Part shown: positions 31,711 through 64,000 of the stretch, in pieces
Position numbering within the stretch: position 1 is the first letter of the stretch
Layout of the letters: every line of letters begins with the position of its first letter
Assembly: GCA_051453625.1 (NCBI GenBank)
Contig: JBOZIK010000001.1
Location: 4,052,123 to 4,116,122 of the forward strand
Direction of reading: 5' to 3'
Length of the DNA stretch: 64,000 bases
Source of the DNA: Welwitschia mirabilis
Taxonomy: Eukaryota
Position numbers and translations under genes: made by a program
The notes under the pieces: model-generated
The model's database searches: none
Told to the model about the DNA's origin: nothing
Seen by the model: the letters and a program-made list of their open reading frames with translations, nothing else

Positions 31711-31909
31711 TGTTGCGATTCCATTATATAGGAATTTGATGATGTATTTTGATTACTTTTGTATGATATTTACATAGTTTTGGATACAATATTGATGATT
31801 ATGTAGATCTAATGGGATGGTCAATGAAACATGTGATTATTAGCATATTTAATGGTTTCTTAGGCTCATTCTAAGAATGCATATTTGGAAGAAGAATTTA
31901 TCATGCAAG

Positions 31910-34900
31910 AGTCATTTGTACAACTACCCATTTTATCATTAATAAATGATTAGGGATGATGAAATACCATTTTGATAATAGAAACATTACCATTAGATTT
32001 TTTGATGCTACTGATAAAGACATAGGAATAGAGTTTAACTTTGAAGATGAATTTAAATAAACCTTGTCTTTACAACATTAACCAATTGAAGAGAGATTAA
32101 TCATGCTACATGAATCAACTTTATATGATGTTCCCACTAAAACATAGTGTCTTAAATCTGAGTAGGAAGAACACATAGACTAGAAATAAACTCAATATAT
32201 TTATTTAGTAGAAAAACCTTTTAAGGAGTATTGTCCCATGTCTATCATCCACATGACAGATGGGATGATAACCCAAAATACCACCCTTAAACTTAAGAAA
32301 TTACCCAAGGATTAAAATATATTTTTCTCTCTAAAAATCCAATGAAACCTCTGATAATCAGTGACCTTCTCACTCCTTAACAAGAATTAAACTTGATCTC
32401 ACTCTTAATTTTGAAAGAAAATGTCTTTGTACTTAGACATATAAATACCTAGTTGTCATTCCTATTTTCATAGTTCAATATAAGATTTACCATGAAGATA
32501 ATGCTAAACCTATTAGGCATCCCTAAACAAGACTCAATCTAATCCTTAAATAAATTATTAAAGATGAAATCTTTAAACTTATGGATGCTAGAAATTTATA
32601 TGCCATATCTAATAATTAGTGGGTTAGTCTTTTAACAGTAGTTCCAAATAAGGGGGAATGGAGAATGTGCATAGATTTTAAAAAACTTAATAAGGTCACT
32701 AAAAAAGATCATTATCCTTTACCTTTTCTTGATTAAGTACTTGATAGAATCCAAGGTCATGCCTACTATTATTTTCTTGATCGATATAGTGGCTATAATA
32801 AAATATGTAAAGTGAGTGAATACTAAACTAAAACCACTTTTACCTCATCATTTGGAATCTTTTATTTTAAACAAATGCCCTTTGGACTTTTTAATGCCCT
32901 TAAAAACTTTCAATAAGTCATGATAAATATTTTCTTTAATATGATAGAAGATTGTATTGAAATTTTTATGGATGATTTCTCCATCTTTGGTGAAACTTTT
33001 GAAAAAACTATACTGAGATTAGAAAAAGTCCTAGATCGATGTATTAAAAATGGCTTACATTTTAGTTGTAAAAAGATTTTTCTCCTTATCGAATATGAAA
33101 TTGTTTTAAGTCATCACAATTCAAAAGAACAGATTAGGATGAATCCCATAAAGTTGATATCATTAAAAACCTTAGCCCTCCAACTAATGTCAAAAAAGTT
33201 AAATCTTTCCTTGGCCATGCTAGCTTTTATGGATGATTCATTCATGATTATTTTAAAATTTATAAACATCTTCACTCATTACTTAAAAAAGATGTTAAAT
33301 TTAATTGAAATTATTCATGCCAACTTGAATTTAAAAATCTCAAAGAAAACATTTATTCTAAGCCTATTATCATATGTCTCAATTGGAGTAAAGACTTTAA
33401 ACTTATGTGTGATGCAAGTAACATTGCTGTAGGAGGTGTTCTTGGCCAAAAGTATAAAAATGGTTTCAAAATTATATTTTATCTTAGTAAAACTTTGTCC
33501 CAATTCCAATCCAAATATACTACTACCAAGAGAGAAATGCTTGCCATAATCTTTTACTTAGATCATATTTAACATTACCTTCTTGACTTTCACCTCAATG
33601 TTTACACAAATCATGTAGTCATCTGCTATCTTATGACTAAAAAAAAATCTAGTACTAGATTATTATGTGTATTTTTCTCATGTAATAAATTAATCTTACC
33701 ATTATTGATAAGGTTGAAAAACATAACAATGTTGCTAATCATCTATCTTGACTCTCTTTCTCTTATGATGAAGCTCCCATTAATGAATTTTTTCCTAATG
33801 AATAACTCTTTGTAATTAAATAACTTTATGCTATCTCATCTTCTCATCTTACTCCTTGGTATGCTATCATCGTAAACTACCTTGTTACTATGAAAACTCC
33901 TTAGTGTTGGAATCATAACCAATGTAAAACTTTTTTCCCTAGGATTGGTAACTATGAATGGAATGAACCCCATCTTTATAGATGTTGCAAAAATTAAATT
34001 ATGCATAAGTGTGTATCTGAGTAGAAAACTTTAGAAATACTAAAACTTTACCATGGTTGGGTTTGTAGAAGATACTTTAGTGGATAAAAGACTATCATGA
34101 TAATTCTTCACTGTATTTTTTATTAGCCTACTCTTTTCAAAGACTCATTTTACTTTTCTCAAAAGTGTAATGCATGTTAATGCTATGGTAGTCTAACTCA
34201 TTCTCATAACATACTCCTCAAAGCTATACTTGAATGTGAACCTTTTGATTATTAGAAAATTGACTTTATAGGCCTAATTACACCACCTTTCCATGAGAGA
34301 TAAGTATATCCTTGTAGCTATGAATTATGTTACTAAGTGGGTTGAAGTTGTTCCTACTACCAAAAATGCTCAAACCATTTGCAACTTTTTTTGAACTCAT
34401 ATCTTTCAATGATTTGGTTTTTCATGAATTATCATTAGTAATTAGGGAACTCATTTTATTATTCACCTTTTCTAGAAACTTATTTTATTAATAGATGTTA
34501 AACATAGAATTTCTTATGCCTATCATCCTTAAATTAATGGTCAAGATAAAAATGAAAATAGAGAAATCAAAAAGATTCTTCAAAAATTATTCTCTATCAA
34601 TAAAAAACTTGGTCCTCTAAACATAATGATGTTTTTAGTTATTATTATACTACTTAATATAATTTTTTAGATTTTTCACCTTATGAACTTGTGTATGACA
34701 AAGTGTATGTGTGTTACTAATTGATGTTTTCTATAATTCTTATCAATCCACCCATCAACTTAACCTCGTAGACTTGAATGACAATCATAAAATTCAATTA
34801 CCTCAACTTGATTATTTAGATGAAAAATGTACTCATGCTTTGCATTATTAACTCACTCATAAAACTCAAGCTAATTTTAGACATGATAAAAAGATTTTTC

Positions 34901-35185
34901 ATAAGTAATTTAAACCTGATCCACTTGTTCTTCTGTGTAACACTCAAGTACACCTTTTTTACAAGAAGTTAACTTCTAAACGGTTAAGTCCTTATCTTAT
35001 AGCAAAAGTACACTAAAATGGCTCAATTAAAATATCTAATCTAAAAACTAGAGAAATTCAAAAGATTAATGGACAAAGGTTAAAAATTTATGAGTTATCT
35101 CCTAATGTAACCTTGAACATAATAGAGGTACTTGTTTTGGAAGCCCCTCTTCATAAGAAGAACATTTCTTTTGTCATTATCTAAA
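31910..35185 (+). pseudogene. pol: D pol: protease end, RT, RNase H, integrase (decayed)
   Basis: LKLKKLP; WVSLLTVVPNKGEWRMCIDFKKLNKVTKKDHYPLPFLD; MPFGLFNA; IFMDDFSIFG (FMDD at 32965-32976); FKLMCDASNIAVGGVLGQ; integrase HHCC region about 34050-34190, IDFIG, N*GTHF, YHP*INGQ, LTSKRLSPY. Confidence 0.92.
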
Positions 35186-35381
35186 TTCTTTCTTAAATCA
35201 TTCCTTAGGTAAATATAATGTTATTACTTGAATATTTTTTAACTTAACATATGTATTTACTTATGAAGTTTCCATGATTAGNNNNNNNNNNNNNNNNNNN
35301 NNNNNNNNNNNNNNNNNNNNNNNNNNNNNNNNNNNNNNNNNNNNNNNNNNNNNNNNNNNNNNNNNNNNNNNNNNNNNNNNN

Positions 35382-37185
35382 AGTAAAGACTTTGAACTTA
35401 TGTGTGATGTAAGTAACATTATTATTTGGGGTTTGGAGGTGGGGTGGGAGGCTATTCCTGATCAAAAGTATGAAAATGGTTTTAAAGTCATATCTTATCT
35501 TAGTAAAACTTTGTCCCTAGCCTAGTCCAACTATAGTAATACTAAGAGAATAATGCTTGCCATTATATTTTGCTTAGATCATCTTTGACATGATATTTTC
35601 AGTTTTCACATTAATATTTACACAGATCATGTAGTCATCTACTATCTTATAACTAAAAAAGACTCTAGTGCTAGACTTATTAGATGGATCCTTCTCATGG
35701 AAGAATTTAAGCTTACCATCATTGATAAGGCTATAAAATATAATAGTATTTTTGATCATATATCTTGATTTTTTTCCTATCATGATGAAACTCCTATTAA
35801 TGAATCTTTTCCCAATGAGCAACTCTTTTCAATTAAACAACTTTATGCTATCTCATCTTCTTAATATACTTCTTCATATGCTGACATCATGAACTATCTT
35901 ATCACTATGAAAACTCCTCAAAATTATAACTAACAAAAAACTTTTCTCCATAGGATTAGTGACTATCAGTGGAATGAACCCCATCTCTATAGACATTGCA
36001 AAGATGAAATTATATGTAAGTGTGTACCTGAGTGGGAAATCTTAAAGATTCTAAAACTTTGCTATGAAGGAGTATGTGGGGGATACTTTCGTATTCAAAA
36101 GATTGTCATGAAAATTTTTCACTCTAGTTTTTATTAGCCTACCCTTTTTAAGGATTCATATGACTTTTACTAGAAGATGTGATGCATATTAATGTTATGG
36201 TAGCCTAACTCACTCTCATGATATGATACTTAAACCTATTCTTGAAGGTTAACCTTTAGGTTATTATGAAATTAACTTTATAGGCCCTATCTTATCATAA
36301 CAAAAATTATATCCTTATCACTGTTGACTATGTTACTAAGTGGGTATAAGATATTCCTACTACTAAAAATGATGCTCGATCCATTTGCAACTTTATTCGA
36401 AATCATATATTTCAATGATTAAGTTTTTCACAAATTATCATTACTGATTAGAAAACTCATTTCATTAATCACCTTTTTTGAAAACTTTTTTTATCCATTA
36501 GTGTTGAACATAGAATTGCTATGCCTATTATCCTTAAATCAATGGATAAGTAAAAAATGCAAACAAATAACTCAAAAAGATGCTTCATAAATTAGTCTCT
36601 GTTAATAAAAAAACATGGTTCTTTAAGCTTAATGATGTTCTTTGGGCTTACCGTACTACTTGGCATAATTATCAAGGTTTCTCACCATATAAACTTATGT
36701 ATGACAAAGTTTGTGTTCTACTAATTAATGTTTGCTATAATTCGTACTGATCCACCCATCAACTTAACCTCATAAATGTAAATGAAAATCTTAAAATTTA
36801 TTCCAACTTGATCATTTAGATGAAAAACATACTTACGCTTTACATGGTTAATTCATTCATAAAATGCAATCCAATTTTAGACATGATAAAAAAATTATTC
36901 ATAAACAATTTAAACCTAATTAACTTATCCATTTGTATAACACTTAAGTACACCTATTTCACAATAAGTTAACTTCTAAATGATTAGATTCTTATCTTAT
37001 AGAAAAAGTACACTCAAATGAATTAGTTTAAATATTTGATTTAGATACTAGAGAAATTCAAAAAAGTTAATGGACAAAGGTTAAAAATTTATGAGTCATC
37101 TCCTAATAAAACATTAAACATAACAGAAGCACTTGTTTTGAAAGCCCCTCTTTATGAGAAGGACCTTCCTTGTGACATTTTCTAA
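35382..37185 (+). pseudogene. pol: Second, diverged RNase H-integrase copy inside D
   Basis: Colinear with 33387-35185 (KDFELMCDVSN; VDYVTKWV; ITD*KTHF; VLWAYRTT; KVNGQRLKIYE) with many substitutions. Confidence 0.9.
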
Positions 37186-39103
37186 ATTTCTTCTTAACTC
37201 ATTCCTTAAATAAACATCATGTTATCACTATGATAAGATTGACTTCATCCAATCTTCAGACATTCATATGTCTATGAACTTCATTTTAAAAGCAATATGC
37301 CTTAGTTATTTTGTTCTCTTTTAATGATGTGAGTAATTAGTTATTTTTGCATGTTCTTACCTTATTACTCATCTCATTACTTTACTTTTATCCTTAGAAG
37401 TACTTGGTCATGTGGAATTTCATATAAAAAAATAAAATATAAAAAAACAAGACCATGCTCTTTCATGTTATATCTCAAAAACATGGCCCTCATGATGTCC
37501 TATCATAAATGCACTAGGACAAATATTCCTGAGAATGGCCTTTAGTTGTGTAATATGATAGCTATGAAAACTCCACTGGGGGGTAAATTGACCATGCTTT
37601 ATGATTTATTACTCCTCTAATAGTGGTTTTACTTTCCTCATCATGGTAAAAAAAAAAAGTACTTGCAGGTTATAACATCAGTGATGTCCCTAGTATCATC
37701 AGAATCATTGCTTTTTTTCAAGAATCATGTTTACTTATTTATGGTACTTCCACATGATTACTTGACTTTTTTAGATTCTAATGTTATTTTGAGATAAGAG
37801 CTTGTAAGTTCTTATTTTAAATAGATTTTTATCTTATCATTTGTTATTTGATAACATTAGACATACTTGACATCATCATAATCATTGCCTAATTAAGTGG
37901 TACTTTATAATTACTACATATTGTCATGCATATTTTATCAAGTAATTTTATTATTATTGCCAAGGAAATTTGTTAGGCTAGAATTTAGGATAAGAAAGTA
38001 ATCTTCTTCATGTTTCTAGTTGTTTATTTTCATTTTATTTTTCTTTAGTTGTTTTTTAAGATTTTTGAAATCCATTTTTCATACTTTTTAAGCATCATAT
38101 TATGGATCTAATCATTTTCTAATTCCTTATTGATATTTTTTTGTAATTTCTCTAGAAGATATTATTTCTTTCTCATAGGTTCTCATGATTTGATGAGTTT
38201 TTATTCTTATTTTCCATGAGTTTGGACACATTTGAGGAGTTATTGAGCATTGATTATTTTCACTTAGTGCATTTTCTTATACTTTCACCTTTTTCTTCCC
38301 CACCATGAGGATGTTCTTCAAGCTATTTCTTTACTTTCTCCTTGTTTTCCATTTTTTTTCTGTGTTTTTTTGTGTTTACTTATTTTTAGAATTTTATAAT
38401 TTTACTTTTTCATCTCAACAAGTTATTTGATGACTATCATCCCATGCCTGTCATTCTAACGATAGATGGGATGACACTTCTCCTTTATTCTTGGTGTAAT
38501 TTGGGATGTCTTACTTCTCCTCGGATTTTGGGGGAAGTGGATAGAACACCTTTCTAAGCATTACTCTATGATTTTGAGCATAAAATGTTTCATATTTTGA
38601 GCTTTTATGGTCTAAATTTATGATGGGTTATTTGGATTAGTACATTAATTGAATAAATTTATGGAGAATTCATGAACTTTATCTTGCAGGATTCAATAAT
38701 ACACCATAAAGTTTTTCCCATAAGCCATATTTTAGATCATCTAAAAAAATTCTATATCTACTCTTACCCTTTTCCTTTATGATAATACTAATGAACTTAA
38801 ATACATCATTCTTTAGAGGATAATACTACTTAAGTCTATCACATCAGTCCATTATCACTATACTGTTATCATTTTTTTTTTGTGTATGGCACTCATTTAT
38901 TTTATAGTAACATGCTTAAGTAGGAGGATTAAGGAAGTTTTTTAGCAGTTGTTTTAATTATCTATTTTTGATATCATTTCTTACATGATTTAATGGAACT
39001 CAATTTACATCTTTTTTAGTATTATTTTATCTTGGTGAAATTGGATCATATTCTAGTTGATCATTTACTTTGTTAGGAACTGATAAGGCTAAATAGAGGG
39101 ATA

Positions 39104-43538: not shown

Positions 43539-43539
43539 T

Positions 43540-46170: not shown

Positions 46171-46177
46171 GTACTTT

Positions 46178-47438
46178 TTTTTTAATGCTAAATTGTATGT
46201 TTCTAATTAGGTATTTTGAGTAGTTTTGCAAGATATTTAGAAGTGTTTAACACAAAATGATGATTGTTAAGATTCATGGAGAAAATCATGGAAATACACA
46301 ATTATCAATACATTTGAAGGCATTTTGGATTAATTTTAATATTTCACATTTTGAATAGGAATTAATGTTCTACAAGGCTAAATTCACTTAGTTGAATAGC
46401 TTGAAAAAGTCTATCAGCTTCTTTATCATCTGGATGACCACCTGGATGACATCATTTACATGCTAACTAGGATGTTGATTAGACCAACATGAAGGCTAAA
46501 TATAAAAATCTCCTTACCATCATTCATATGACCAAAGGATGATACTTAATTATAGTTAATGTATCAAACTTTACTTAACTTATGTAATGTATCATGCATC
46601 TTCTATGCATCATTAGGATTTTAGTTGCGTCTTTTAGATTTTTTATTTTTAAGTCTATTATTGTTAATAAATACTACCTTTTCCCTCAACTTTGATAATA
46701 TTTTTAGCATAAAAAAGTCTTATGATAGAAGATCGAAAGGCATAAGGTCCATCTCTTAGTTACAGAGAGGAGTTTTCCTTAGTGTTCAATTGTGCCTACT
46801 TCATTAATGTGCTACTACTTTTTAATAGAATGTTGGTTCAACTTCTAATGAAAATCTTCTTTTAGTTTTATTCATGTGAATGTCCCTTATGATTTATGTT
46901 GCTTACAGTTCCATAATAACTTTATTTGTGATATAGGTCATTAAAGAAAACCTTTATCAAGGTTGAAATTATTAGGATAGGAACTTATATTATATTTTAT
47001 ATTTTTTAGCTTAATATTACATGTTTTTCATATTTTATTTAACATACTTAATAGCCTACGTTGGTTAGGATTAGTAACTATTTCTTAATTGATCTAGGTT
47101 AGATAGGGCCAATCTTGATGATAGAGATTTAGTAGTTAGATAAATATTAAATTTAGAATCATTTACATCTATGTTTTATTAGTGTATTTATTTTCTGGCA
47201 TTGTTGATTTTCATTTTGAACATTAAAAGAAAAACCAAAAAATACATAACATTAAATCAATCCTCTAGCTTTGAACCTAGCGCCTTCAATAGATTATGAC
47301 ATTTGGGTTAACTATTATCTATATTAGTGTGTTGTGTTTGTGCATATATTTATGATTGATAAGATTTAACTAGCATATATTTGTGATTGATAATATTTAA
47401 CTAAGGATATAACATTTGTATAAATACATCCTGCAACA
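46178..47438 (+). repeat. 5' LTR of B2
   Basis: Homologous to 63601-64000; ends ctgcaaca before the PBS; start decayed into a T run. Confidence 0.8.
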
Positions 47439-47875
47439 TCTTGGCACCATTACTAGAAAAGGCTATAAGGAGTTTGGGGATTATCATTATCTAGATTAGT
47501 GATTTTAATTTTAATTTAAGTATTTGTTTGTAATAGTTTTTATTTTTATGTTTTTCATTTTTCATTCCACATTTTTGAGCTTGTTGTCTTGTTTGCCATC
47601 TAGATGATACAATAGACAATGATCTAGGATTATGATTTTTCTAAGATTTTTCATAGTTTTTATTTTCAAGATTTTTCTATAGAACAAATTGCTATTATCT
47701 TTCCTATTATCCAAACAATATAGGTAGACAACTATTAATTTTAGTTTTAGTTCTATTTTTTTTTTTCCATGTTCTCTCTTTTTCATTTTTTTTTCTATGT
47801 AGTAGTTGTCCAGGTAATCATCTAGATGATGATAGAGATGAAAACTATAGAAATATCATTAAGCATTCAGGGATA

Positions 47876-50800
47876 TGATATACTTAGGTAAAAAGTTAAA
47901 GTATTAAACAAAGCAAAGCTTGATTAAGAAAAATATTAGAGAAGGTATAATTAACTATGAGCGTAACCCAAGCATGCATATCCTAAGTATGTAAATAATT
48001 TGAAGAATTAAGAAAGAAGGTTTTATAGCTTTATTATTTTAAAATATAATTTTTTAAAAGAAATTAATAGTTTAGAAGCCAATTATTTTTCTCCATTTAT
48101 TTTGAATTGAATACAAAAAAAGATAAGTAGGTTTATTAAACACTTCAATCATGATAGAAATTTCTAATATAAATTCAAATGTAAATACAAATGTTTCATT
48201 TAAAGTTTTAAAAGATAATAAAAAATATAAAATCCAAAATCTTTTTTACTTACCTTATGGTAATGATCTAGAATTAATAAACTTAAATGATTATTCAACT
48301 TTTTTAGGAGAACCTAATAAAGATCCTTTCCAACATCTCTCCAACATAGAATAATTAGTGCTCACTTTAGGAAATGGAAAAAATGAATTAGTAATTAAAC
48401 CTACATGATTATTTTTTCTATCACAGTTAGAGATAGTGAAAACTTTGTCTTAAAATCATGCCTCATAAAAGTCTTAAAACCTGGAGTTAAGTATAAGACG
48501 ATTTTATCAAATGATTCAAGCATGAGAGCATAATGGAAAAAATAACAAAACAAGTTACAAATTCTTTACAACAACTTAATGGTATTATGCCATAACATAT
48601 AAACACTTTATTACAGCTACTCATTCTAATCCTATTAACGAATTTTCTAAAATGAATTATAGATTATTTTTACAATGGATTGAATAGAAAATTCAAATAA
48701 CTTATAGATTTTTCATGTGATGGAAACTTGATGAATTCAAATTTAGAAAATGCTTGGACATTATTGAAAGATCATCTTAAAATTAGTCAAACTTGGCCTA
48801 AATTAACGTTTAATAAAAATTGAACTGTAGGTCAAACGATAAAAGACTTAAAAGAAGTAAAACATGATAAGGAGGAATTTCAAAAAAAATCTAATAAAAG
48901 TAATTAAGGATTTTACTACTTCTTTGAAAAAATAAACTCAAATAATTCTAGATCCAAAGGTAACAAATGAGAAAAACATAATATCAACATGTGATATATG
49001 TGAAGATAGCTCTTATATAACACAAAAATGTTCCTTGTTACCTACATGTAAAGAGAAAATACTTGAAGAAGTTCATGCATTTAACCAAAGACCTTTAAAT
49101 TTTCAAAACCANNNNNNNNNNNNNNNNNNNNNNNNNNNNNNNNNNNNNNNNNNNNNNNNNNNNNNNNNNNNNNNNNNNNNNNNNNNNNNNNNNNNNNNNN
49201 NNNNNNNNNNNTTTAAATTTTCAAAATCAAATGTAATATCAATAAGGAATGAGTGGATAAAATAAATAAAAATCTCTTGAGAAAAGATCAAATAATTCAA
49301 ACTTCCAACCAAATAAATTCTAATCAAGTAGTTTAAAATTTAAATCAAGCTTTTTAAATTTTTAAAATCAAAATAAAAATGATCTAATTATGAATACAAT
49401 GGAAGAGTTAAGAAGAACTAACACAAATATTAAAAATTCAATTNNNNNNNNNNNNNNNNNNNNNNNNNNCAATCAAAGATTACAAGGATCTCTTACAATA
49501 TAAACTTTTTCAAATTCAAATGAAGTAAAAATGAGATTATAAATTAATTAATACAAAAACACCTATCTATGAAACTTCAACTTCAAAAAATTATGAAGAA
49601 GGAAAGGAAGAGGAGATATAGAAATCTTAGAAACATATAATTTTCCTTCAACTCTAAGTAAGTGTTTACAAAAAAATAAAGGAAATAGATAAGCTACTCC
49701 TTGACTTGATAAATTAAATATAGATCCTATTTTTGATGAGAACTTAAATGACTTAATATAAGATAATAATATCAACTCATCCTTTCAAAAACTCTTTCAA
49801 GAAATCCTAAGTATCCTAAGTTGTGGAAAGACCTACTTAAAAGAAAACAAAAATGTATTGTTCGTACTAGAGTCTTTCTTGCATAATCTATATTCAACTT
49901 AGTCATATAAAAAGCACCTAAATTTGAAGATCCTAAGGTAGCTATAGAGAGTGTTACTTTAGAAGGAAATAATAAAATAAACAAATCTTTAATTGAACGA
50001 GGATCAAGTGTAAACACTATGCCTCTTCACATTTGTGAAGGACTGGGGTTAAAAAAAAGAATTAAACCTACATAAATCACCTTAGAATTAGCTGATATAT
50101 TAAGAAGGAAAATTGTAGGGATTATTAAAAACTAAGTCATCCAAATAGAAGAATCCGTCTTACCCATATATCTAGTTATAAATGAAGTATAACATGATGA
50201 AAGTTACCCACTACTTTTAGTAAGAGCCTTTTGTGCAACTATTCATTTCATTATAGATGCATGAACCAGATTAATGGAATGTCACATTGGTAATAATAAG
50301 TACACTATTAGGGTTTTTGATGCTATAGAAAAAGATATGGATAATGAAAGAAACTTAGAAAAAAGATCAAAACCAACTTTATTTGTATAACATCATCTAG
50401 TTGAAGAGATATTAAGAATATTATAAGAGTCAATTTTTCATAATATTTAAATAGAAATAAATATTTCTAATTACAGGGATGAAGAAGTGAAATCTATTAA
50501 TAGAAAAGAAGTCCAATATGTAAACTTAATTGAGAAAATATTTTATATGACTTATTTTTCACTTCAGTTATCTAGATGACAATCATATACAATAGTAAGA
50601 AAAAGTATAATTCAACAAAATAAAAATAAGAATAATGAAAAAAAGGAAAGATATAATTACTGATAATAAAAAAAATAGAAAGTACTTAATACAAAAAGAA
50701 TAAAGACAACAATAAGAAGAGAAATAATAATTAAGAACCTATAAAATATCAACCAAACTTGATGAAAAATAGAGCTATCCTTTCCAAAATACTAATCCAA

Positions 50801-51340
50801 TTTAAAAAAATTTCCCATGTTTCTCCATCCCATTCTCTTAAAAATATTTAAAGAAACATCTTTTCTTATTTTACCAAGTACACTTAATCTTATTTATCTA
50901 ATGATAATTTTTTTTTAAGTATGACTTGGGATATCTCAGACTTTTAAATTATAGAAAATTTTATCTTTTTGATTTTTCATACTTAAAGCTAAGACTTAGA
51001 AAAATTCTTAAGTATATTAAACCTAGCTTCATCATTCATCCTAAGAATCTTTCTTAAAATTTTTTTGATTCCTAATAGGACCATTAATCTTTTTCATTTT
51101 CAATATTAATCTTTAGATGAAATCTATATTTGGAATTCTTCATGTAATGAATTTGATAAGAGATTATTGTTCCATGAATTATCTAATCTCTTTATCTCTC
51201 AAATAGCAAATAAATGTTTTGGAGTTAAAATATAACTTCTCATGCATATATAACTTTTATATTTTATTACTTGATCTTTATTTGGTTTATTTCCCTTTTT
51301 TTGGAAGAAAATACAATTTCCTAGATCCTAAATAAATTCT
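47876..51340 (+). pseudogene. gag: B2 gag-protease plus a C-terminal extension of unknown function; no RT, RNase H or integrase
   Basis: STFLGEPNKDPFQHLSNIE; knuckle STCDICEDSSYITQKC (about 48985-49032); KINKSLIERGSSVNTMPL (protease, about 49975-50027); LLLVRAFCAT; then an extension ending LDEIYIWNSSCNEFDKRLLFHEL...SLFGLFPFFWKKI. Confidence 0.85.
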
Positions 51341-53019
51341 TCTTTCTTTTTTCTTTTTTTCCTTGTAAATAAAGTGCTGAGTAGGACTTAGGATCTAAAT
51401 AAAATTTGTTTTTAATTTTCTTTGGTATTTCGTTTTGATTTTATGATTGTTATGATTTTGTCTTTGATTTTTAATTTTTAATAAATTAATCTATAGATGG
51501 TTAGGTCCTTATATTTTAGAGAGAGTAAGTTTTTAGTGACTTACTTGAATTTTTTTATTTAAACACTAGGGGAATTCAAAAAAATGTATAAGAGTTGAAC
51601 ATCTGTGAGTTATTAAACTTTAAAAATGATATAAGTAATTGTTTTGAAAATTCTCCTATCATTATAAATTCTTTCTTAGCTAATTCTTTTAGTGGACATC
51701 ATGTTATCACTTAAACATCTTTAAAACTTGACTAATGTTTCACTTTATGAAGTTACTATGACTAGTAATTTTTACTTATGCATTTCAAAAGTGATAAGAT
51801 TGGATTCACATAATCTTAAGACATTAAAATATGTGTGAAATTTATTTTAAAGGAAGATGCTTTAGTTTTTTTATGTTTTCTCTTAATGGTATGAGTTTTT
51901 GGTTGTTTGGGGGTGTTATTTNNNNNNNNNNNNNNNNNNNNNNNNNNNNNNNNNNNNNNNNNNNNNNNNNNNNNNNNNNNNNNNNNNNNNNNNNNNNNNA
52001 AAAAAAAAAAGAATAACGACCATGATCTATTATTTCTATGTTAAATACATGGTCATCATAATGTCCTACTATATTAGGATAATTTTTTTTAAAAGGGATC
52101 TTTCATAGTATTAGTAGCTATGGGAACCCCCATGGGGGATCAGTTGGCCATGCTTCATGAGTTCCTACTTCTTTGATGATAGTTTCACCCCTGTTCATCA
52201 TGGAATAATAATAAATACTTTAAGGCTACAGGGTTAGTGGTGTCCCTAGTATCACTAGAGGCATTGTTTGTTTCCTAGACTAATTGAAATTATAGTATTA
52301 TCATATGGTCATTTCACTTTTGAGGATTCAGGTGTGCTTTGAGTTGTGAATAGGTGAGTCCATTTTTAAGTAGCTTTTAATCTTGTCATTTATTATTTTT
52401 AAATAATAGTTGCTTAGCATCATCATAATCACTACCTTTTCAAGTGAAACTTTATGAAATTTTTGCATTATGACATGCATCATTAGTCAGGTAATTTTCT
52501 AATTTCTTTCTGAGGGTTTACTAAGTTAGAATTAAGAGTAGGCATATAATCTTCTATATATTTGTAGTTATCCATTTTTGTTTTGTTTTTCTTAAATGTC
52601 TTATTTTGTATTCTAAATTTCTTTTCATACATTTTCATCATAAATATGTAGGACTTAATCATTTATAGTTTTTTATTAATTTTTATTTTTAACTTACACA
52701 GTCTTCTTTATAAATTTGATTTTCTTTTTAGTGCTTTTAGCAAATAATGCTTCTTAGTTTATGATGCTGATTTTTTCCATCTATTCTTTTAGTATCTTTT
52801 TTGAGTTTACTTTTCTTTAATTTTCCTTTTGAGTTTTTATGCATCATATTTTTTAATAGTTGTGAGTTCATGGCATATTTCATAATCTCCTTAGCTTGCT
52901 TCATTCACCTTCTTTGTCATGCCTTCTTCATCATGATTCTTAGCCATTTTCCATCTCTCAAACTTTTTGATAACTTTTTAAAACCTCCTTAATGCTATCT
53001 AAGCTTAACTAATTCTATT

Positions 53020-54229
53020 TATTGTGATGCATATTTATGAAAATGTTACATCCTTAAATAAATTATATTAATCACAAATATATGCATAAACATAACATAC
53101 TAATATAGATAGAAGTATACCTAGATGTCATAATTTGTTGAGGGCACTAGGCGAGAATAAACAGGATTGATTTTCATAACGTAAAGGTTAAAAATAAAAA
53201 TCAATAATGCAAGAAAAGTAAACACATAATGTGAATGCAAATGCAATCTATTTTAAATGAAATATCTATTTGATTATTAAATCTTTATTATTAAGATCAG
53301 CCTTGTATAACCTAGATCAATTAAGAAAATTATCACTAATCTTAACTAACCTAAGCTATGAAGTATGTTAAACAGAGTAGGAAAAACATGTAATGATTAA
53401 TCTAGGAAATATAAAATGCAATGTAGGTTTCTAAAATAACATTTTTAACCTTAACAAAGATTGCCCTTGATTACCTATATCATAAATAAAACTGTCATGA
53501 AATCATAAGCAACATAAATCATAAGGAAGATGTACATGAATAAATAACACTAGAGGAATATTTTCATTAAAATCAAATCAACATCCTATTATAAAGTAGT
53601 ACCTTGATGAAGGAGCCACAATCCAATACTAAAGAAAACCCCTCTCTATAATTAATGGATATACTTTGGCTCTTCAAGCTCCTATCACAAGAATTTATAA
53701 TGCAATGAAGATCATTGAAGTTGAGGATAAAGGCCATATTTATTGACAATAATATAATTAAAAGTAGATAATTATAATAGATGTATGAGAAATCATAATG
53801 ATGCACAAAAAGTACATGACATATTACATAAGTTTAATGAAGTTTAGTACTTTAATTAAAATTAGATTATCATCCTAGTTATCATCCAAATGATGGTTGG
53901 GATGATGCCATATTAAGAGAGTTCTATATTTAGCTTTCATGTTGATCTTGTTACATCCTAGTCAGCATGTGAATGGTATTGTCTAGGTGGTCATCCAAAT
54001 GATTGAGGAGATGATAATCTTCTTCAAGCTCTTAATCAAGTAAATTTTTATTTGTAGAATATTAATTCCTTATTAAAACATTAAGTGTTATAATTAATCC
54101 AAAATATTTGCAAAAGTGCTAGTATTTGTGCATTTCTATGATTTATTCTTTTATTCTTAAACCTATCTAAATGTCTTGCAAAACTACTTAAAATACCCCA
54201 TTAAAAACATACAATTTGGTGTCATAACA
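53020..54229 (-). repeat. 3' LTR of B3
   Basis: Colinear direct repeat of 60596-61784; adjacent PPT. Confidence 0.88.
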
Positions 54230-56890
54230 TAGCCCTCCACTTAGTCCTGTCAATTCCTAATAAAGTTGGCAAAAAACTATAATTACAAGTCAAATTGACT
54301 AAGATAAAACACTAACTAGGAATATGTAAATTAAGTTCAGAAATCTCATTTTATGGGATAAAAAACTTAGAACCTAATAAATGAGAATGTTTATCTTGGT
54401 AGATGTTATGATGGTATTATCATCTAGAATATTGTCTGAACAATTATGGGGATAATAGGTTCTTAAAAATCAATTTGTAAAATTGATTTCCTATAATCAT
54501 GTTCATTAAAAAATAAAATCATAATACTTAGCAGGATATTAGCCCCCCAGTCAAAACATCTGGTGCATTAAAAAGACAGAAATTGGATGTCATAATAAAA
54601 ATAATCATCATAAGATATGACCATAATAACTTACATAAATGATGTGCATGTATAGTAAAAAAATCAATAATTTAAAATTAATTTTCAACAAGAATTAAGT
54701 TTTAAACCATAATCAAAGACTATATTACCTTCAATCACGGTCTTAAGAACTTCTTGTATCATTCCTATAAGGAAAATAAACTACAAGTATTCTACTATTA
54801 ATTACATGTTTTGTTAAATAATCTCTATAATATATATCACTCAAATTATAGGCATTCAGAATTTGATTAGTACACTACAACTATATCTCACGAAAATATA
54901 AAAATAACCCTTAAAAATGTAAGGTTTAAACTTTTTTCTCAAAAGTATCTTATTCCCTTCCTCCCCCCCCCCTTCTCCCCCCCAACTCCTCCTCCTCCTC
55001 CCTTCCTTTCTATTAAGTGAATCAATAAGTCCTGTATTGCATTAAGGTAAGATGAAAAAGATCAATATGCAAGTTTAGTAAAAGTGAGTAAAATAGGAAA
55101 GACTGGGATCACTATATTGTACACAAAAAGAAGGGTTAGAAAGAGATAGAAAAAGATGGAACAAAAAGATGATGCACCTCATAAATTATCTATGGATTAT
55201 TTACCTAGTTATTTGGATAATAGGTAGGATAACACAATTTTTCAAAAGATTAAAAAATTTGGAATTATCAGCAAAAGTAATTAAGCTCATATAGCATTAT
55301 GTAGGTTTTAGAAAGTTATTAGAAAGTATGAAAGATGGGAAATGGCTAAGAATCATGATAAATAAGGCATGATAAAGGAGGTGATACCAAGCTAAGGAAG
55401 ATAAATGTACTATAAACTTACAATTTATTAATTGCATTGAAACTCAAAAAGAAAATTAATGAACTAAAAGAATAGATGGAAAAATTACCATAAAAAATTA
55501 AAGAAACATTATTTACAAAAAGAAACTTAACTGCTATAAACAAAAACTATAGATGAGAAATAAAAATTAAAAAGAAAACTATTAAATGATCAAGTCCTAA
55601 GCATTTATGATAAAAAAGTATGGAAATGACTTTGAAATACCAAAGGAAACAACTAAGGAAGAAAAAATAAAAATGAACAACTTAGGAACATGAAGAATAT
55701 TATATACCTACCCTAAATTCAAACATAGTAAACCCTCATTGAAGAAATCATAAAATCTCCTAATTAATGATGCATGACATAATGAAAAAACTCCATAAAG
55801 TACCAATTGAATAGGTAGTGATTACCACAATGCCAAGTAATTAATATTTTCAAATAATGAATGGTAAAATTAAAAGCTACAATAGAAGAACTCACCTACT
55901 CACATCCCAAAACACACCTAAAACCTTAAAAGTGAAGTGACTATATGGGAGTACTATAAGTACAATAAGTCTAGGAAATAAGCAATACCTCTAATGATAC
56001 TAGGAACACCCCTGATCCTGTAGCCTCGAAGTATTTTATTTTAATCCATAATGAGGGGAGTGCAACCATAGTTAGAAAAATAGGAACATGTGAAGCATGA
56101 CCAACTGATCCTCTAGTATAGTTCCTATAGCTACCAATATTACTAAAGGTTCCTTTTAAGAAAATTTACCCCAATGTGATAGGATATCATGGTGATCATG
56201 TAACTAGCACAGAAATATTAATCATGGTCATTATTCTTTTTTTTTTAAATATACTTCTTTAAATTAAATTCCACATGACCAAACTCATCAAGACCAAGGT
56301 GAAGAAATGAGAAGAAAAATAACAAAATAATTAAATATTTAAATCATTGGAAGAAAACACAAAAAATAAAGCATCTTCCCTTAAATGAAGTTTATAGATA
56401 TTTGAATGTCTTAATATTAGATGAATCTAATTTTATTACTTTGAAATGTCCAAGTAAANNNNNNNNNNGACTAACCATGGTAAATTCATAAAGTAAATCA
56501 TAAGTTAAGTTAAATATGTTGAAGTAATAGCATGACATCTAACAAAAGAATAAGCTAAGAAATAATTCAGATAATGGTAGGATAACATTCAAAACAATTA
56601 CTTCTATCATGTTTAAGATCTTTTGATAATTCATGGATTTTTAGGGATTCTTCATTTTTCAAATTTCCTTAGTTTTTAAATCAAAAATCTTAACTAAGTC
56701 ATTCAAAATGTACTTTCTTGAAAAGATAAGAGCCTAATCATCTAGAGATTAATTTATTGAAATAAAAACCAAAGAGAAAAATATAATAACATAAAATAAA
56801 AATAAAATATAAAGTCAAATAAAAAATGTTCCATTTAAATATTAATTCCTATCTAAAACTTTATTTGCAATAAGGAAAAGAAAGAATAAT

Positions 56891-59800
56891 TTATTTCAAT
56901 CCTAGGATAATGTACTTTCTCAAAAAAAATAAGGACCAAATCAAATAAAGACCAATTGATAAAACATGAAAGGCATATATGCATGAAAAGCTAATATTTT
57001 GGCTCATAAGATTTATTTGCAATATAAGAGATAAAAGGTTTATATAATTCATGGAAGAACAATCTCTTACCAAACTCATGATATAAAGAATTTCAAATAT
57101 AGATTTCATCTAAAAATTGATATTGAGGATGAGAAATATTAATGGATCTATTAGGAATCAAAAAAATTAGAGAAAGCTTCTTACGATGAATGATTAAGGT
57201 AGGATTAATATACTTAAGAATTTTTCTAAGTCTCAGCTTAAAGTATGAATTATTAAAAAGATAAAATTTCTATAATTTAGAAGTTCAATATTTTTGAATT
57301 TATTATTTTAAAAAGATTTATCATTAAAAGCTAAAGTGAACTTGGTATAAAAGGAAATAATGTTTCTTTGAATATTTTTAAGAGAATGAAATGAAGAAAT
57401 ATTAGAAGATTTTCTAAATTGGATTATCGTCTTGGAAATGATAGATTTATTTTTCACTAAGTTTGATTGAGATTTTTTTATATTTCTCATTACTCCTCCT
57501 TTTTTCTTTATTGTTTTTGATCTTACTATGTTGAATCTTTTTTATATTTCTCTAATTAGTAACTTTATCTTTCCCTTTATCATTATTTTTATTTCTCTTT
57601 TTTTGATTTTTATATTTCTAACTATCATCCTACTCTATCATCCAAATGACAGGGGTGAATGATGAGGCTTATAGTAAAACGTTTTAATTAAGTTCACTTC
57701 TTTATCCTTGTGATTAAAGCCATTTACTTTTATTAGACTTTTGTGAAAAGTCAAGTCTTGTAGTATTCTTAATCTCTCTCTAACTGAATGATGTTAAATA
57801 AAGTTAGTTTAGCTCTTTTTTCTAGATTTTCTTCATCACCTATATCTTTCTCTATAGCATCAAAAACTTTAATAGTATATCTCTTATTAGCAATGTGACA
57901 TTCAATTAATTCAGTTCGTGTATCTATGATGTAATGGGCAGTTTTACAAAAGGTTTTTCCTAAAAGTAGTGAATACTTTCCGTTATGCTATACTTCAATT
58001 ATAAACATATCTATGGGGTAGAAGGCTCCTTTTATTTAAATAACTAAGTTTTTAATAATCCCTACAGGTTTTCTAGTCAATGTATCAACTAATTCTAAGG
58101 TGATTTGTATAGGTTTAATTCTTTCTTCTAGCCCAAATCTTTTACAAATGTAAAGAGGTATGATATCTACACTTGCTCCTATATCAATAAAGCTTTTTTG
58201 ATTTTCTTATTCCCTTCTAAAGTAGCACTTACTATAGCTACCACGTGATCTTTAAATTTAGGTGCTTTGTTTATGACTAAGTTGAAAATGTATTGTGCAA
58301 GAAAAACTCTACTAGAAATAGTATGTTTTTGTTTTTTTCTAATTAGATCTTTCCACAACTTAGCATACTTAGGATTTTCTTGCAAGAGTTTCTAAAAAAG
58401 GGAGTTAATATCAACATCTTGCATTAAAGCTTTTAAGTATTTATTAAAAACAAGATTTGTATTTAGTCTATCAAGCTAAGGAGTAGCTTATCTTTTCCTT
58501 TTATTTTTTCATAAAGGCTTATCTAATGTTGAAGGGAAATTATATGATTCTAAGATTTTATATCCTCCCTCTCCTTATCTTTCTCAACATTTTTAGAAGT
58601 TAAAGTTTCATGAATAGGTGGTGGTGTATAAATTATTTTGCAATCTCTTTTTACTTCATTTGGATTCGGAAAAGTTTGAGTTGTAAGAGATCCTTGTAAT
58701 CTTCGAAGGGCTAACAACTGATTACTAAAATATCTTAACTAAATTTCTAATGTTTCTATTAGTTTTACTTAAATCTTTTATACTTAGTTCATTTTAATTT
58801 TAAGTACTTAGTTATTTGATTGGAAATTTAAATTATTTAATATATTCTCAAAAGGTTTTTAATTATTTTACCCACTTATTTCTTGTTGACATTTCATTTG
58901 ATTTTGAAAATTTGGGCCTTTGGTTAAATGCACATACTTATTCAAGTACTTTCTCTTTACATGAAGGTAATAAGGAATATTTTTTTATTACGTGAGAGTT
59001 ATCTTGATAAATATATCATGTTGATATTACACTCTTTTCATTTGCTACTTTTTCATTTAGAGTCATTTGATTGTATTTCTCCAATGTAGTAGTGAAATTC
59101 TTGATTACTTTTGTTGAATTATTTTGTTATTTATTATTATCATATTTCACTTATTTTAAATTTTTTATCATTTACTATACAATTTAAATTTTTTTAAAAA
59201 CTTGATTTAGGTCAAGTCTAACCAAATTTTAATATGATTTTCCAACAATGTTCATGCATTTTCTCAATCTAAACTTATTAAATTGCCATCACACAAAAAA
59301 TCTATAGGTTGTTTGGTTTTTCTATTTAGTCCACTATAAAAATAATGTATTAATTGTTCTTTAGGAAGTTTATTAACAGGATTAGAATGAGTTGCTATAT
59401 TGAATCATTCATATGTTATAGAATAATCTTCATTAGGTTGTTGTTGGAAATTTGTGACTTCTTTTTTTCTTTTTCTTATTGTGCTTTCACTCATGAATCT
59501 TTTGATAAAATCATCTTATACTTGACTTAATATTTTAATACTTTTATGTTATATAGATTTAAGCCAAAGTTTTAATCTGTCTTTAAGTGTAATAGGAAAA
59601 ATAATCATGTAATTTCTATCACTAGTTCATCTTTTTTCATTTCTTGAAGTGAGCTCTAATTGTCCTATGTTAGCAAAATTTTGAAAAGGATCTTCATTAG
59701 GTTCTCCTAAAAATGTTGAATTAGAATTTAATTTTTTTAGATATACATCATCACCAGAAGGTAGATTAAAAGTGTTTTGTATTTCATGTTTTCTATGGGC

Positions 59801-60135
59801 TATTAAATCTCTAAGTTTAATATTTGCATTAGATGTGTATGCATTAGGAGTTCTTATCATGGTTGGGGTATTGGATGATGCTACTTGCTTTTACTTTTGC
59901 CTCGTATTCAAAATAGATTTAAAAAAATGATTCACTTCTAAACTATTGCTTTTTTGAAAAATAATACTTTGTTATAATAAAAGTTGAAAAATTTTTGTTT
60001 AATTCTTGGAATTCTTTATTTACTTGGGTGTGCATACTTAAAATAAGTTTGAATTCAACAAGATCTTCTCTAATATTTTTCTTAATTAGGCTTCACTTCA
60101 TATGACACTTTGTCATTTTATCTAAGTGTACTATG
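56891..60135 (-). pseudogene. gag: B3 gag-protease plus C-terminal extension
   Basis: ORF track: STFLGEPNEDPFQNFANI (59627-59860); QENPKYAKLWKDLI...APKFKD...VSATLEGNKKIKKAL (58179-58385); extension fragments 57308-57490 and 56891-57109 region. No pol motifs. Confidence 0.85.
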
Positions 60136-60595
60136 TCCCTACATGATCAATTATGTTTTTGCAATCTCGCCTCTATCATTGTTCAGGTGATAACTTGGAT
60201 GACTACTATATAGAAAACAAAAATAAAAAACTAAAAATAGAGAAAAATAAAAATAAAACTAAAACCAAAACTGATAGTCATTTATCTATGTTATTTTAAT
60301 GATAGAGGAGATGATATCAATTTATTATATGATAGAAAACCAAAAATTAAAATCATAGAAATTTTAGAAAAACCCTAATCCTTTGCATTGTCCGCTTATG
60401 TTATCTGAGAAACAAATAGGATGATAGGCTTAAAAAATAAAAAAATACCAAAAAATGTGGAAATAAAAACTATGATATTTATAATAAAAATATAATGCTA
60501 TCATAAACAAATACCTGAATTAAAATCCAAAGCACTTATCTAGGTAATTATAATTCTTGAACTCCTTGCGATCTTTCCTAGTAACAATGCCAAGA

Positions 60596-61784
60596 TGTTC
60601 TAGTATGTATTTATGCAAATGATATTTCTTTAGTCAAGTCCTATTAATCAGAAATATATGCACAAACATAATATAGTAATATAGATTATAGTAGATCCAA
60701 ATGTGTTAATTTCTTAAAGACACTAGACAAGAAGAAGAAGAATTAATTTTGACAAAGTAAAGATTCAAAATGAAAATCAATACTACAAGAAAAGTAAACA
60801 CATAATGCAAATGCAAATGCAATCTACTCTAGATGGAATATCTATTTAGCTATTAAATATATATCATTAATATCATCCCTATATAACCTAGATTAATTAA
60901 GAAAACTATTAATAACCATAACAGACCTATATCACAAATGAAGTTGTTATAAATGAAGTTCCTTAACTAGTATTTTTAACTTTAACAAAGTTGTCCTTGA
61001 TGACATATATCACAAATGAAGTTATCATGGAAACATAAGTAACATAAACTATAAGGGAGATATACATGAATAAATAAAACTAAAAGAATATTTCCATTAA
61101 AAATCAAACCAACATCTTGTTATAAACAATAGCACCTCGATGAAGGAAACGCATCCCAACACTAATAAAGACTCCTCTCTGAAACTAGTGGGTGGACTTC
61201 TAGTTCTTTAATCTCCTATCATGATAATTTTTAGTAAAATGAAGATTATTAGAGTCAAGGAAAAAGGCCATATTTATTAACAACAATAAATTAAAAAATA
61301 GACGATCTTAATAGATGCATGAGAAACCCTAATGGTGCATTGAAATCACATGCAATATTGCATAAGTTTGATCAAGTTTAGTACATTAACTAAAACTATA
61401 TTATCATCCTGGTTGTTATTTGGATGATGGTGGGGATGATTCCATGTCAAAAGTATTCTATATTTAGCCTTCATGTCGATCAATCCCACATCTTAATCAG
61501 CATGTAAGTGGTATCATATAAGTGGTTATTTAGATGATTTAGGTAATGATAGTATTCTTTAAGCTATTAATCAAGTAAATCTAGTTTTGTAGAACATTAA
61601 TTCCTCCTTAAAATGTGAAGTTTTATAATTGATTCAAAATGCCTCCAAAAGTACTAGTATTTGTTCATTTTAGTGATTTTATCCTTGACTTCCAATAATA
61701 ATTATTTTATGTTTAAATCTATCTAAATGTCCTATAAACTATTTAAAATATTTCATCAAAAACATATAATTTAACATCACAATG
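60596..61784 (-). repeat. 5' LTR of B3
   Basis: Adjacent to the PBS; direct repeat of 53020-54229; outer flank matches the TSD. Confidence 0.88.
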
Positions 61785-63600
61785 CTAATATTTTCATTTT
61801 TTTAAAATCTTTTCAAAACCTTGTTGTCCACCTTATCATCCAAATGACTAAGCAAGATGACACACTCATATTTTCTAAGATACATTAGTTTTTTATTTTA
61901 TCTTTTTTATACTAAATATAACCCTTCTTTTCATACATAGAATACTATTCCTAGGTCTACCTATTTTGCTTCTTTATACTTAACTTGCATGTTGATATTT
62001 ATTTTCCTCATGTTAATGCAATACAAGACATATTAATTCACTTGTGAAGGGGACAAGACATATATTTTGAAGTATTTTAAAGAAAAAATCTTAAGTTTTT
62101 AAGGGTTATTTTTAGTTTTCACAATACATATTTATAATGTACTTTTCTAATTTTGACTGCCTATTATTTGAGTGATATGCATTATGGATGCTATTTAGTA
62201 AAACATGTACTTAAGAGTAGAATACTTGCAATTTGTTTTCCTTGTAGGGGCAATCTAAGAAATTGATGAGATCATGAATGAAGGGAATAATGTTATGATT
62301 GATTATTTTTTATATAATTTCCCTTGTATATTATGCTTAAAAACTCAATGTTTATCTTATAAATTTCATTTTTGAGTTATGAAGTTTTCTAATCATACAT
62401 GCATATCATTTTTCTACGTTATNNNNNNNNNNNNNNNNNNNNNNNNNNNNNNNNNNNNNNNNNNNNNNNNNNNNNNNNNNNNNNNNNNNNNNNNNNNNNN
62501 NNNNNNNNNNNNNNNNNNNNNNNNNNNNNNNNNNNNNNNNNNNNNNNNNNNNNNNNNNNNNNNNNNNNCAGTTGCAAGCACTTGATTTTAGAGTATAATT
62601 TTTAGAATCTTTTTATCCCCATAATCATCTAGATGACATGTTGGATAATAGCATAGTTACATTATCTATTAGGTAAAACAATTTATTTTATTTGATTCTG
62701 AGATTTAATCTTGCATAATGAAATTTTTGAACTTGATTTACATATTCCTAGTTAATTTCTATCTTAGTCAATTTAGCTTGCAATTATAGTTGTTTGCCAA
62801 CTTTACCAGGGACTAACAAGGCTAAGTGGAGTGCTATGTTGTAANNNNNNNNNNNNNNNNNNNNNNNNNNNNNNNNNNNNNNNNNNNNNNNNNNNNNNNN
62901 NNNNNNNNNNNNNNNNNNNNNNNNNNNNNNNNNNNNNNNNNNNNNNNNNNNNNNNNNNNNNNNNNNNNNNNNNNNNNNNNNNNNNNNNNNNNNNNNNNNN
63001 NNNNNNNNNNNNNNNNNNNNNNNNNNNNNNNNNNNNNNNNNNNNNNNNNNNNNNNNNNNNNNNNNNNNNNNNNNNNNNNNNNNNNNNNNNNNNNNNNNNN
63101 NNNNNNNNNNNNNNNNNNNNNNNNNNNNNNNNNNNNNNNNNNNNNNNNNNNNNNNNNNNNNNNNNNNNNNNNNNNNNNNNNNNNNNNNNNNNNNNNNNNN
63201 NNNNNNNNNNNNNNNNNNNNNNNNNNNNNNNNNNNNNNNNNNNNNNNNNNNNNNNNNNNNNNNNNNNNNNNNNNNNNNNNNNNNNNNNNNNNNNNNNNNN
63301 NNNNNNNNNNNNNNNNNNNNNNNNNNNNNNNNNNNNNNNNNNNNNNNNNNNNNNNNNNNNNNNNNNNNNNNNNNNNNNNNNNNNNNNNNNNNNNNNNNNN
63401 NNNNNNNNNNNNNNNNNNNNNNNNNNNNNNNNNNNNNNNNNNNNNNNNNNNNNNNNNNNNNNNNNNNNNNNNNNNNNNNNNNNNNNNNNNNNNNNNNNNN
63501 NNNNNNNNNNNNNNNNNNNNNNNNNNNNNNNNNNNNNNNNNNNNNAATTATAGTTGTTTACCAACTTTACCAGGGACTAACAAGGCTAAGTGGAGTGCTA

Positions 63601-64000
63601 TGTTGTAATGTTAAATTATATGTTTTGATGGGGTATTTTGAGTAGTTTACAAGACATTTAAATAGGTTTAAGCAAAAAACAAAAATTATTGAGAGTCAAG
63701 GGAAATATCATAGAAACACATAATTGCCAGCACATATGGAGGCATTGTGGATCAATGCTAATACTTCACATTTTAAGGACCAATTAATGTTTTATAAGGC
63801 CAAACTCACTTGGTTGAAGAGCTTGAAAAAATCTATCATTCCTTTAACCACAAAGATGCCACCACTTACATGCTAACTAGGATGGTGACTAGACCAACAT
63901 GAAGGGTAAATATAAAACTCTCTTAACATGGCATTATCCCCACTAGTATTTAGATGATTAAAAGAATGATACCTAATTTTAGTTAATATATCAAATTTTA
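63601..64000 (+). repeat. 3' LTR of B2 (partial)
   Basis: Starts tgttgtaatg after PPT aagtggagtgcta; aligns with 46178-46570. Confidence 0.85.

Follow-up and report, generated by a model that had tools for sequence, protein, structure and literature searches.

The window analysed here is a stretch of 64,000 nucleotides of Welwitschia mirabilis DNA (contig JBOZIK010000001.1, positions 4,052,123 to 4,116,122 of the forward strand; coordinates below count from the first letter of the window). Its right-hand part holds two nested retrotransposons with long terminal repeats (LTRs), B2 and B3, which carry gag and protease remnants and which, in place of reverse transcriptase (RT), RNase H and integrase, have a segment here called the tail. 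A third copy of the tail, B1, and a relative that contains pol, D, lie further to the left. Protein remnants were located by tblastn with P0007, a full-length relative of 1,787 residues that runs from gag to integrase, and by a Pfam run on read-through translations in which stop codons were entered as X. A first-pass annotation of this DNA, made from the sequence alone, had taken the tail for a novel coding extension of Gag-protease. The parts of the B copies are as follows.

46180..47440 (start approximate), plus strand: B2 5' LTR, then a motif resembling a primer binding site (PBS), TGGCACCATTACTAG, at about 47442
49806..50333, plus strand: B2 protease remnant (tblastn E 1.9e-15, P0007 residues 553-731)
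50334..50589, plus strand: B2 linker between protease and RT, resembling D 32020-32270; the similarity to D stops at its end
50590..51480, plus strand: B2 tail, 0.89 kb, the filler in place of RT-RNase H-integrase
51481..53022, plus strand: B2 post-tail, beginning with the remnant of an integrase C-terminal motif (51483-51530)
53023..61781, minus strand: B3, a complete pol-less element inside B2, 8,759 bp
53023-54217, minus strand: B3 3' LTR
54218-56759, minus strand: B3 post-tail
56760-57626, minus strand: B3 tail
57627-58200, minus strand: B3 linker and protease
59279-59716, minus strand: B3 gag
60577-60592, minus strand: B3 PBS-like motif
60594 (approximate) to 61781, minus strand: B3 5' LTR
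61782..64000, plus strand: continuation of B2 beyond B3; the 3' LTR begins at about 63603 and leaves the window
26020..26860, minus strand: B1 copy of the tail; similarity to B2 and B3 starts at the first tail bases

B3 is a complete LTR element nested in B2, which it cuts at 53022/53023 and which picks up again at 61782. Its LTRs are about 1.19 kb each, have the termini TGTGATG...CATCACA and are 74% identical to each other. Its gag matches PF03732 (59716-59279, Pfam E 1.7e-7) and its protease matches P0007 (58200-57847, tblastn E 8e-13), and stops crowd every frame of its gag-protease region. In both B2 and B3, a PBS-like motif initiated by TGG stands 2 nt past the 5' LTR, and a purine-rich stretch like a polypurine tract (PPT), AAGTGGAGGG, precedes the 3' LTR. 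The PBS-like motif starts TGGC..., which may resemble the tRNA-Asp type. No convincing target site duplication (TSD) was seen for B3 at the inferred ends or at ends shifted by 2 nt, the 5-bp flanks being TTTAT and ATGCT; a TSD could have been erased by the roughly 13% decay per copy. The two LTRs and the PBS-like and PPT-like motifs attributed to B3 in the first-pass annotation are thus present and the TSD is not confirmed, and B3, as a complete LTR element inserted in B2, bears out the claim that the pol-less structure moved as a unit.

Repeats are nested within each other across the window, with mutual identities of 63-83% (self-blastn). G+C is 27% over the window, the observed/expected ratio of CpG is 0.10, and transitions outnumber transversions among the differences between copies. 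The two LTRs of an element (74%) resemble each other no more than separate copies do. Together, these values suggest a single ancient burst with a long period of decay after it. The setting is a plant-type Ty3/gypsy landscape that has decayed under cytosine methylation. The window also contains 15 runs of N, summing to 3,607 bases. No tRNA gene was found within it by ARAGORN, and no Rfam family matched 46000-64000.

A four-way alignment confirms that B2 (plus strand) and B3 (minus strand) follow D through the end of protease and the linker and then diverge from it at the same point. Similarity to D is lost at about 50585-50595 in B2 and 57633-57622 in B3, corresponding to 32262-32270 in D, where D enters the RT leader. 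Beyond this point a segment unrelated to D is common to B2 (50591-51478), B3 (57626-56760) and B1 (26860-26020). The sharing of this segment is therefore as first described; its length, 0.89 kb, is not the 0.75 kb given at the time. B and D become alike again at the integrase C-terminal motif (from 51483 in B2 and 36957 in D) and stay so through the post-integrase region (tblastx), the B2 post-tail after the motif remnant being post-integrase non-coding sequence similar to D 36957-38145. The interval replaced is about 2.7 kb of pol in D versus 0.89 kb in B. In each of the three copies, A makes up 62% and purines 72% of the first 170 nt or so of the tail (50590-50760); in B2 the remainder is T-rich (46% T). 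If this first tract has a role, it may be that of a recombination-prone tract or of an internal purine tract. Translation of the A-rich tract gives K-rich strings; a Pfam match of these to Bin3 (E 0.027, 15.5 bits versus a cut-off of 27) was rejected as compositional.

Between protease and 3' LTR, no tblastn, tblastx or Pfam match to an RT, RNase H or integrase core was found in B beyond some 10-19 residues of the integrase C-terminus. The family is thus non-autonomous, as had been proposed, with gag and protease kept and the enzymatic core gone. We think it likely that a non-autonomous Ty3/gypsy family arose from a D-type element, that non-coding filler took the place of pol in this family, and that B1, B2 and B3 are aged copies of it, decayed through methylation. 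The comparison with pol depends on D, which is laid out as follows.

31960..37229, plus strand: D overall
31960-32270, plus strand: D protease end and linker (self-blastn)
32312-35091, plus strand: D RT to integrase (tblastn with P0007)
35391-37092, plus strand: second RNase H-integrase copy of D, beyond a gap of 100 N

D gives Pfam matches to RVT_1 (3e-14) and RT_RNaseH (4.5e-43) on the plus strand at about 32650-33670, and the only RNase H families matched are RT_RNaseH and RT_RNaseH_2. The closest protein relatives found, with the RNase H region of D as query, are apple Ty3/gypsy polyproteins at 42-44% identity. At the left end, about 200 bp of the 5' end of a D LTR (about 31703-31911, 82.7% identical to 39103-39303) abut the end of protease. 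D is thus 5'-deleted, lacking most of the 5' LTR, the PBS, gag and most of protease. Direct repeats of 77-78% identity flank two gaps of 100 N (33387-35228 and 35382-37229; 28779-29007 and 29130-29369), which suggests either that contigs of different copies were joined in scaffolding or that the duplications are old and tandem; D pol may accordingly be a composite of two copies.

The tail fills exactly the space from the RT leader to the integrase C-terminus, where the remains of the element's own pol would be expected after several internal deletions and heavy decay, and decay on this scale (CpG observed/expected 0.10) could hide short pol fragments. This origin of the tail appears improbable. 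D is equally decayed and still matches pol strongly (tblastn E 3e-97 and 4e-55), as does the B protease (E 1.9e-15), whereas no credible match of the tail to pol was obtained by tblastn with P0007, by tblastx against D or by Pfam, and an nhmmer profile of the three tails recovered from the window only the three copies themselves and nothing in D pol. The few tblastx matches between tail and D are I/L-rich, low-complexity scraps, and in one case two separate B3 segments match a single D segment. When the tail was compared with the window by blastn under lenient scoring, most of the output was low-complexity noise. Pfam found no domain above cut-off in the sense frames of the three tails or the antisense frames of B2, and neither ATHILA ORF-1 (PF03078) nor any other Pfam domain in the tails, the B3 post-tail or the post-integrase region of D. 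The check for an Athila env-like open reading frame (ORF) or decayed pol, for which the first-pass annotation had called, thus came out negative by Pfam, tblastn, tblastx and nhmmer. When the B3 translation was searched with HMMER (phmmer) in the frame given by that annotation against 1.84 billion representative proteins, a single match was returned (E 4.6e-4). This match, P0022, was rejected: it covers 25 residues, crosses a stop of the query and is summed over repeats in a protein with a FAR1 domain.

The coding tests compare the three tail copies, B1, B2 and B3, and show a tail without coding signal in its stops, indel phase, conservation, hydrophobicity and homology. The stretch on which the earlier coding claim was centred is the following.

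51112..51312, plus strand: stretch of B2 described as in register with B3, about 67 codons, 3 stops

The peptide strings reported for it were reproduced letter for letter. Of the approximately 70 codons said to stay in register, what holds is that no indel separates B2 from B3 over 51112-51312; the stretch has three stops in B2, two in B3 and four 1-nt indels in B1. At the rate seen in the tail (12 events in 891 nt), an indel-free B2-B3 run of 200 nt has a chance of about 7% per position. Across the whole tail there are 10-43 stops per sense frame and copy (19-32 in B2). The protease frame has 12 stops common to all three tails, the second frame has 13 and the frame of the stretch has five (50627, 50633, 50945, 50990 and 51389). 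As a control, the protease frame from 49767 to 50577 is without stops shared by B2 and B3, save one at 50190, and this span ends at the breakpoint. Since the stops are shared by all three copies and the protease control is clean, a gag-protease-tail fusion is excluded for the common ancestor of B1, B2 and B3.

In the model of the first-pass annotation, the family made a Gag-protease that continued through the tail, as one polyprotein of its master copy, and whose hydrophobic end possibly anchored it in a membrane. B2 and B3 do remain in register for about 67 codons, the C-terminal part of the translated stretch is rich in F, L and I, and the tail accompanies gag-protease in complete elements. 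The model is nevertheless extremely improbable, and for the common ancestor of the three copies it is already contradicted. About 175 codons separate the linker from the stretch, and into these and the following codons fall the three-copy stops, 12 in the protease frame and five in the frame of the stretch. In B2 that frame is not the protease frame, and its offset from the protease frame differs between B2 and B3. Codon 51233, inside the stretch, is a stop in both B2 (TAA) and B3 (TAG). The gag-protease-tail region, checked on the three copies, is therefore not one open frame, and the indel phase of the tail is random: only 1/12 indels (B2-B3), 2/14 (B2-B1) and 3/16 (B3-B1) are divisible by three. 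Nor is the tail more conserved than its neighbours: its pairwise identities are 0.71-0.82, compared with 0.77-0.80 (gag/protease) and 0.76-0.80 (post-tail) for B2-B3. Split by codon position in the frame of the stretch, the differences (9/17/19, 16/13/21 and 17/15/13) show no selection pattern; the protease control is equally flat (37/33/36), so the test is blind to past constraint and uninformative here, because the differences between copies arose after insertion.

The proposed anchor fares no better. It is 53% T, which accounts for its hydrophobicity: hydrophobic residues make up 0.56-0.60 of the translation whichever of the three frames is read, and 0.48-0.76 in other non-coding pieces that are T-rich. 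Contig depth, described below, is lowest over this part of the tail, and the translation has no credible homologue. Decayed DNA that is rich in T can thus pass for a hydrophobic reading frame.

A more modest proposal is that the tail once held a small independent ORF, either of at most about 130 codons within 50990-51389 or the 72-codon frame beginning with ATG at 51117 (51117-51335), which overlaps the in-register stretch and is just as open. No stop common to all three copies falls within 50990-51389, and in the alternative frame, whose ATG all three copies have, B3 reads through 72 codons without a stop and B2 has one stop. Extra ORFs are common and poorly conserved in the OTA superclade (Ogre/Tat/Athila; PMC6317226), and Athila/Tat-type extra ORFs would be comparable. 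Against this, two overlapping frames are equally open, as is expected because the stretch is T-rich and A-poor. Spans without shared stops are 243-399 nt in the tail, and reach 306-384 nt in the antisense and post-tail sequence. Stop-free stretches of at least 67 codons number 47 in the window, and 32 of these lie beyond the mapped gag/pol. In this region B1 carries four indels of 1 nt, a codon-position pattern is absent, and the 1.84 billion representatives hold no credible homologue when the frame of the in-register stretch is the query. We therefore regard a small ORF of this kind as quite unlikely.

B1 differs from B2 and B3 in its surroundings. Its resemblance to them extends downstream, through post-tail and LTR, to about 22254, while its upstream sequence gives nothing significant against the B2/B3 protease-linker (z 0.2 and 1.8). 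B1 is thus not a whole copy. Two neighbouring features are the following.

29853..31703, minus strand: E-, a gag-protease copy (gag 31590-31703, protease 29996-30340)
28476..28710, minus strand: fourth, partial copy of the tail 3' end, 64% identical to B2, downstream of the E- gag-protease

E- is about 65% identical to B2/B3, has a weak Pfam gag match on the minus strand (31703-31532) and no RT after its linker; D is located within its gag. The fourth tail copy is separated from the E- protease by a gap of 100 N and was detected at E 2e-14 by lenient blastn and only at E 0.28 by nhmmer. Local alignment of the region downstream of E- with the B2 tail gives a match at the ends only, namely the protease end and the last 230 nt or so of the tail. 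The sequence upstream of B1 is the post-tail of a more divergent, E-type gag-protease copy, with similarity to D and B3 down to about 26900-27012. An E-type tail end and post-tail (27338-28710, minus strand) thus meets B1 (24643-26860) at 26861-27012, in the tandem arrangement post-tail followed by tail, post-tail and LTR. A further fragment of B type, at 43536-44599 (minus strand), comprises leader and gag start (gag match 44299-44055), is 75-76% identical to B2/B3 and ends at a gap of 939 N; it could be the missing 5' half of a truncated copy.

The start of B1, at 26860, lies within about 10 nt of the point at which B and D diverge (about 50585-50595 in B2). A junction used twice could be chance, could reflect fragility of the A-rich tract or could mark a favoured site of template switching. 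In the strongest form of the last idea, the first base of the tail would be a discrete, reused recombination point, set by a forced switch of template, either where the RNA has a fixed end or in the A-rich tract of 170 nt, and a module of tail, post-tail and 3' LTR would have been joined repeatedly to different 5' halves, so creating the pol-less family. We hold this scenario to be unlikely.

The pol-less structure is not confined to this locus. In two DNA runs of two organisms, 25,108 (run X2) and 23,817 (run X3) assembled contigs were placed on 49470-51921 with at least 80% likeness, which makes the structure a very abundant family and not a local accident. Summed contig depth in the bins of the tail is of the same order as in those of gag-protease, and several contigs span from the linker to about 50617-50639 with small variable skips. 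The depth minima are at the junction (50536-50617) and across the supposed anchor (51192-51355), where the two X2 bins have 730 and 118 compared with 19,895 in 51110-51191. Transcription was assessed in two RNA runs, of which about a quarter each was read. The reads placed numbered 55 and 14, nearly all overlapping the stretch only partly, and none in the portions read was at least 95% alike. There is thus no sign of transcription of the B2 copy in these two libraries. An index of sequencing runs listed no RNA run for the stretch.

A short hairpin-forming core lies just past the integrase end in B2 (51796-51822), B1 (25668-25694, minus strand) and D (about 37233-37262). In B1 it forms a stem of 8-9 bp, AAGATTGG...CCAATCTT, at -12.6 kcal/mol, and the core is conserved between B and D. 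Its bin has by far the top contig depth (188,514 in X2 versus a few thousand elsewhere), and most of the few RNA reads fall on it, with unrelated flanks; Rfam gave no match. Either a cis element of wide occurrence or a dispersed repeat of small size could account for the core.

Among known systems, B, a family without a name of its own, belongs with the gag/protease-only non-autonomous Ty3/gypsy families known from earlier work. Of the 115 families of non-autonomous LTR elements in sugar beet, 28 are GAG/PROT-only, and many of these exceed the size limit of TR-GAG elements (10.64898/2026.03.01.708851). B resembles such families in its LTRs, PBS-like and PPT-like motifs, gag and protease remnants, lack of an RT/RNase H/integrase core, long non-coding internal region and presumed dependence on an autonomous relative. 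It differs from them in its short integrase C-terminal remnant and its very high copy number. By the strict definition of TR-GAG (intact gag ORF, less than 4 kb), B3 falls outside, with 8,759 bp and no intact gag ORF. Large retrotransposon derivatives (LARDs), which in that source are derivatives of more than 4 kb with a non-coding internal region, are also similar in having a long, LTR-bounded internal region without enzyme domains that is mobilised in trans (as B would be). However, gag and protease can still be recognised in B, whose origin is therefore not fully non-coding.

Assignment of the B/D lineage within the non-chromoviruses is less firm. Large non-coding regions and variable extra ORFs are typical of the OTA superclade, and Athila differs from Tat in lacking a second, archaeal-type RNase H (PMC6317226). 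D has the non-chromovirus order gag-protease-RT-RNase H-integrase and a long post-integrase region, like Athila, and no second RNase H stands between RNase H and integrase: D is colinear with P0007 from RNase H to integrase (615 nt/200 residues, no insert), in a sequence that holds a gap of 100 N and a tandem repeat. Supplementary file 3 of PMC6317226 lists for Athila a tRNA-Asp PBS in 72%, a 5-bp TSD in 95% and sizes of 7.3-22.8 kb. B3, at 8,759 bp, is inside this size range and differs in showing no 5-bp TSD (TTTAT versus ATGCT). Athila elements may have a 3' extra ORF, sometimes ATHILA ORF-1 (PF03078), which is absent in many of them; no PF03078 or other 3' extra ORF was found in the B/D regions scanned, and this does not exclude membership. 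The best protein relatives of D are only 42-44% identical. The lineage is non-chromovirus, and the Athila-like label given by the first-pass annotation is plausible without being proven; the lack of a second RNase H in D agrees with it.

B has kept LTRs, PBS-like motif, gag, protease, linker, the last integrase residues, the post-integrase region and a PPT-like tract. The PPT region and the 5' end of the LTR are common to B and D (about 78% over 102 nt), and these shared cis regions fit mobilisation of B in trans by D-type enzymes. Transcription of B would proceed from the 5' LTR, and particles would take up the RNA. D-type relatives would provide RT, RNase H and integrase in trans; these enzymes, by recognising the PPT and LTR ends common to B and D, would reverse-transcribe the RNA and integrate it. 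The filler most likely arrived by template switching or illegitimate recombination, and would serve as a spacer and not as a protein-coding extension. Partner pairs of autonomous and non-autonomous families, RLG_Cereba/RLG_Quinta in wheat and BARE-1/BARE-2 in barley, are described in 10.64898/2026.03.01.708851; there the defective family shares cis-acting ends with the autonomous one, uses its enzymes and may still supply gag. The putative B-D pairing is comparable in its shared sequence modules and differs in that the window has no intact helper or gag. Of the earlier claim that pol was borrowed from D-type helpers, the shared PPT/LTR end, linker and integrase C-terminus are in agreement, and the transfer in trans itself is what we infer.

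Several points weigh against the reading of B as a pol-less family with non-coding filler. Only three copies and one fragment were compared, all about 25% diverged from each other, and a much older master may have had a coding capacity that these copies alone would not reveal. At methylated sites, C-to-T changes could have given rise to some of the shared stops in parallel. The frame of the in-register stretch has no three-copy stop between 50990 and 51389 (399 nt), the longest such span, with 384 nt in antisense close to it, and the overlapping frame of B3 is open for its 72 codons from the ATG common to the three copies. The window has no intact D-type helper, D being 5'-deleted and perhaps two copies joined across a gap of 100 N, and mobilisation in trans is deduced from shared sequence. 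The source of the filler was not found by Pfam, tblastn/tblastx, nhmmer or HMMER.

Were the fusion model true, B would represent a new membrane-anchored Gag-protease, a rare gain of a domain by a parasitic element. The evidence instead indicates nothing out of the ordinary: a derivative without pol that has kept only gag and protease and carries non-coding filler. Its value is for annotation, where tools relying on domains would give no label beyond gag and protease to a family of very high abundance in two organisms.

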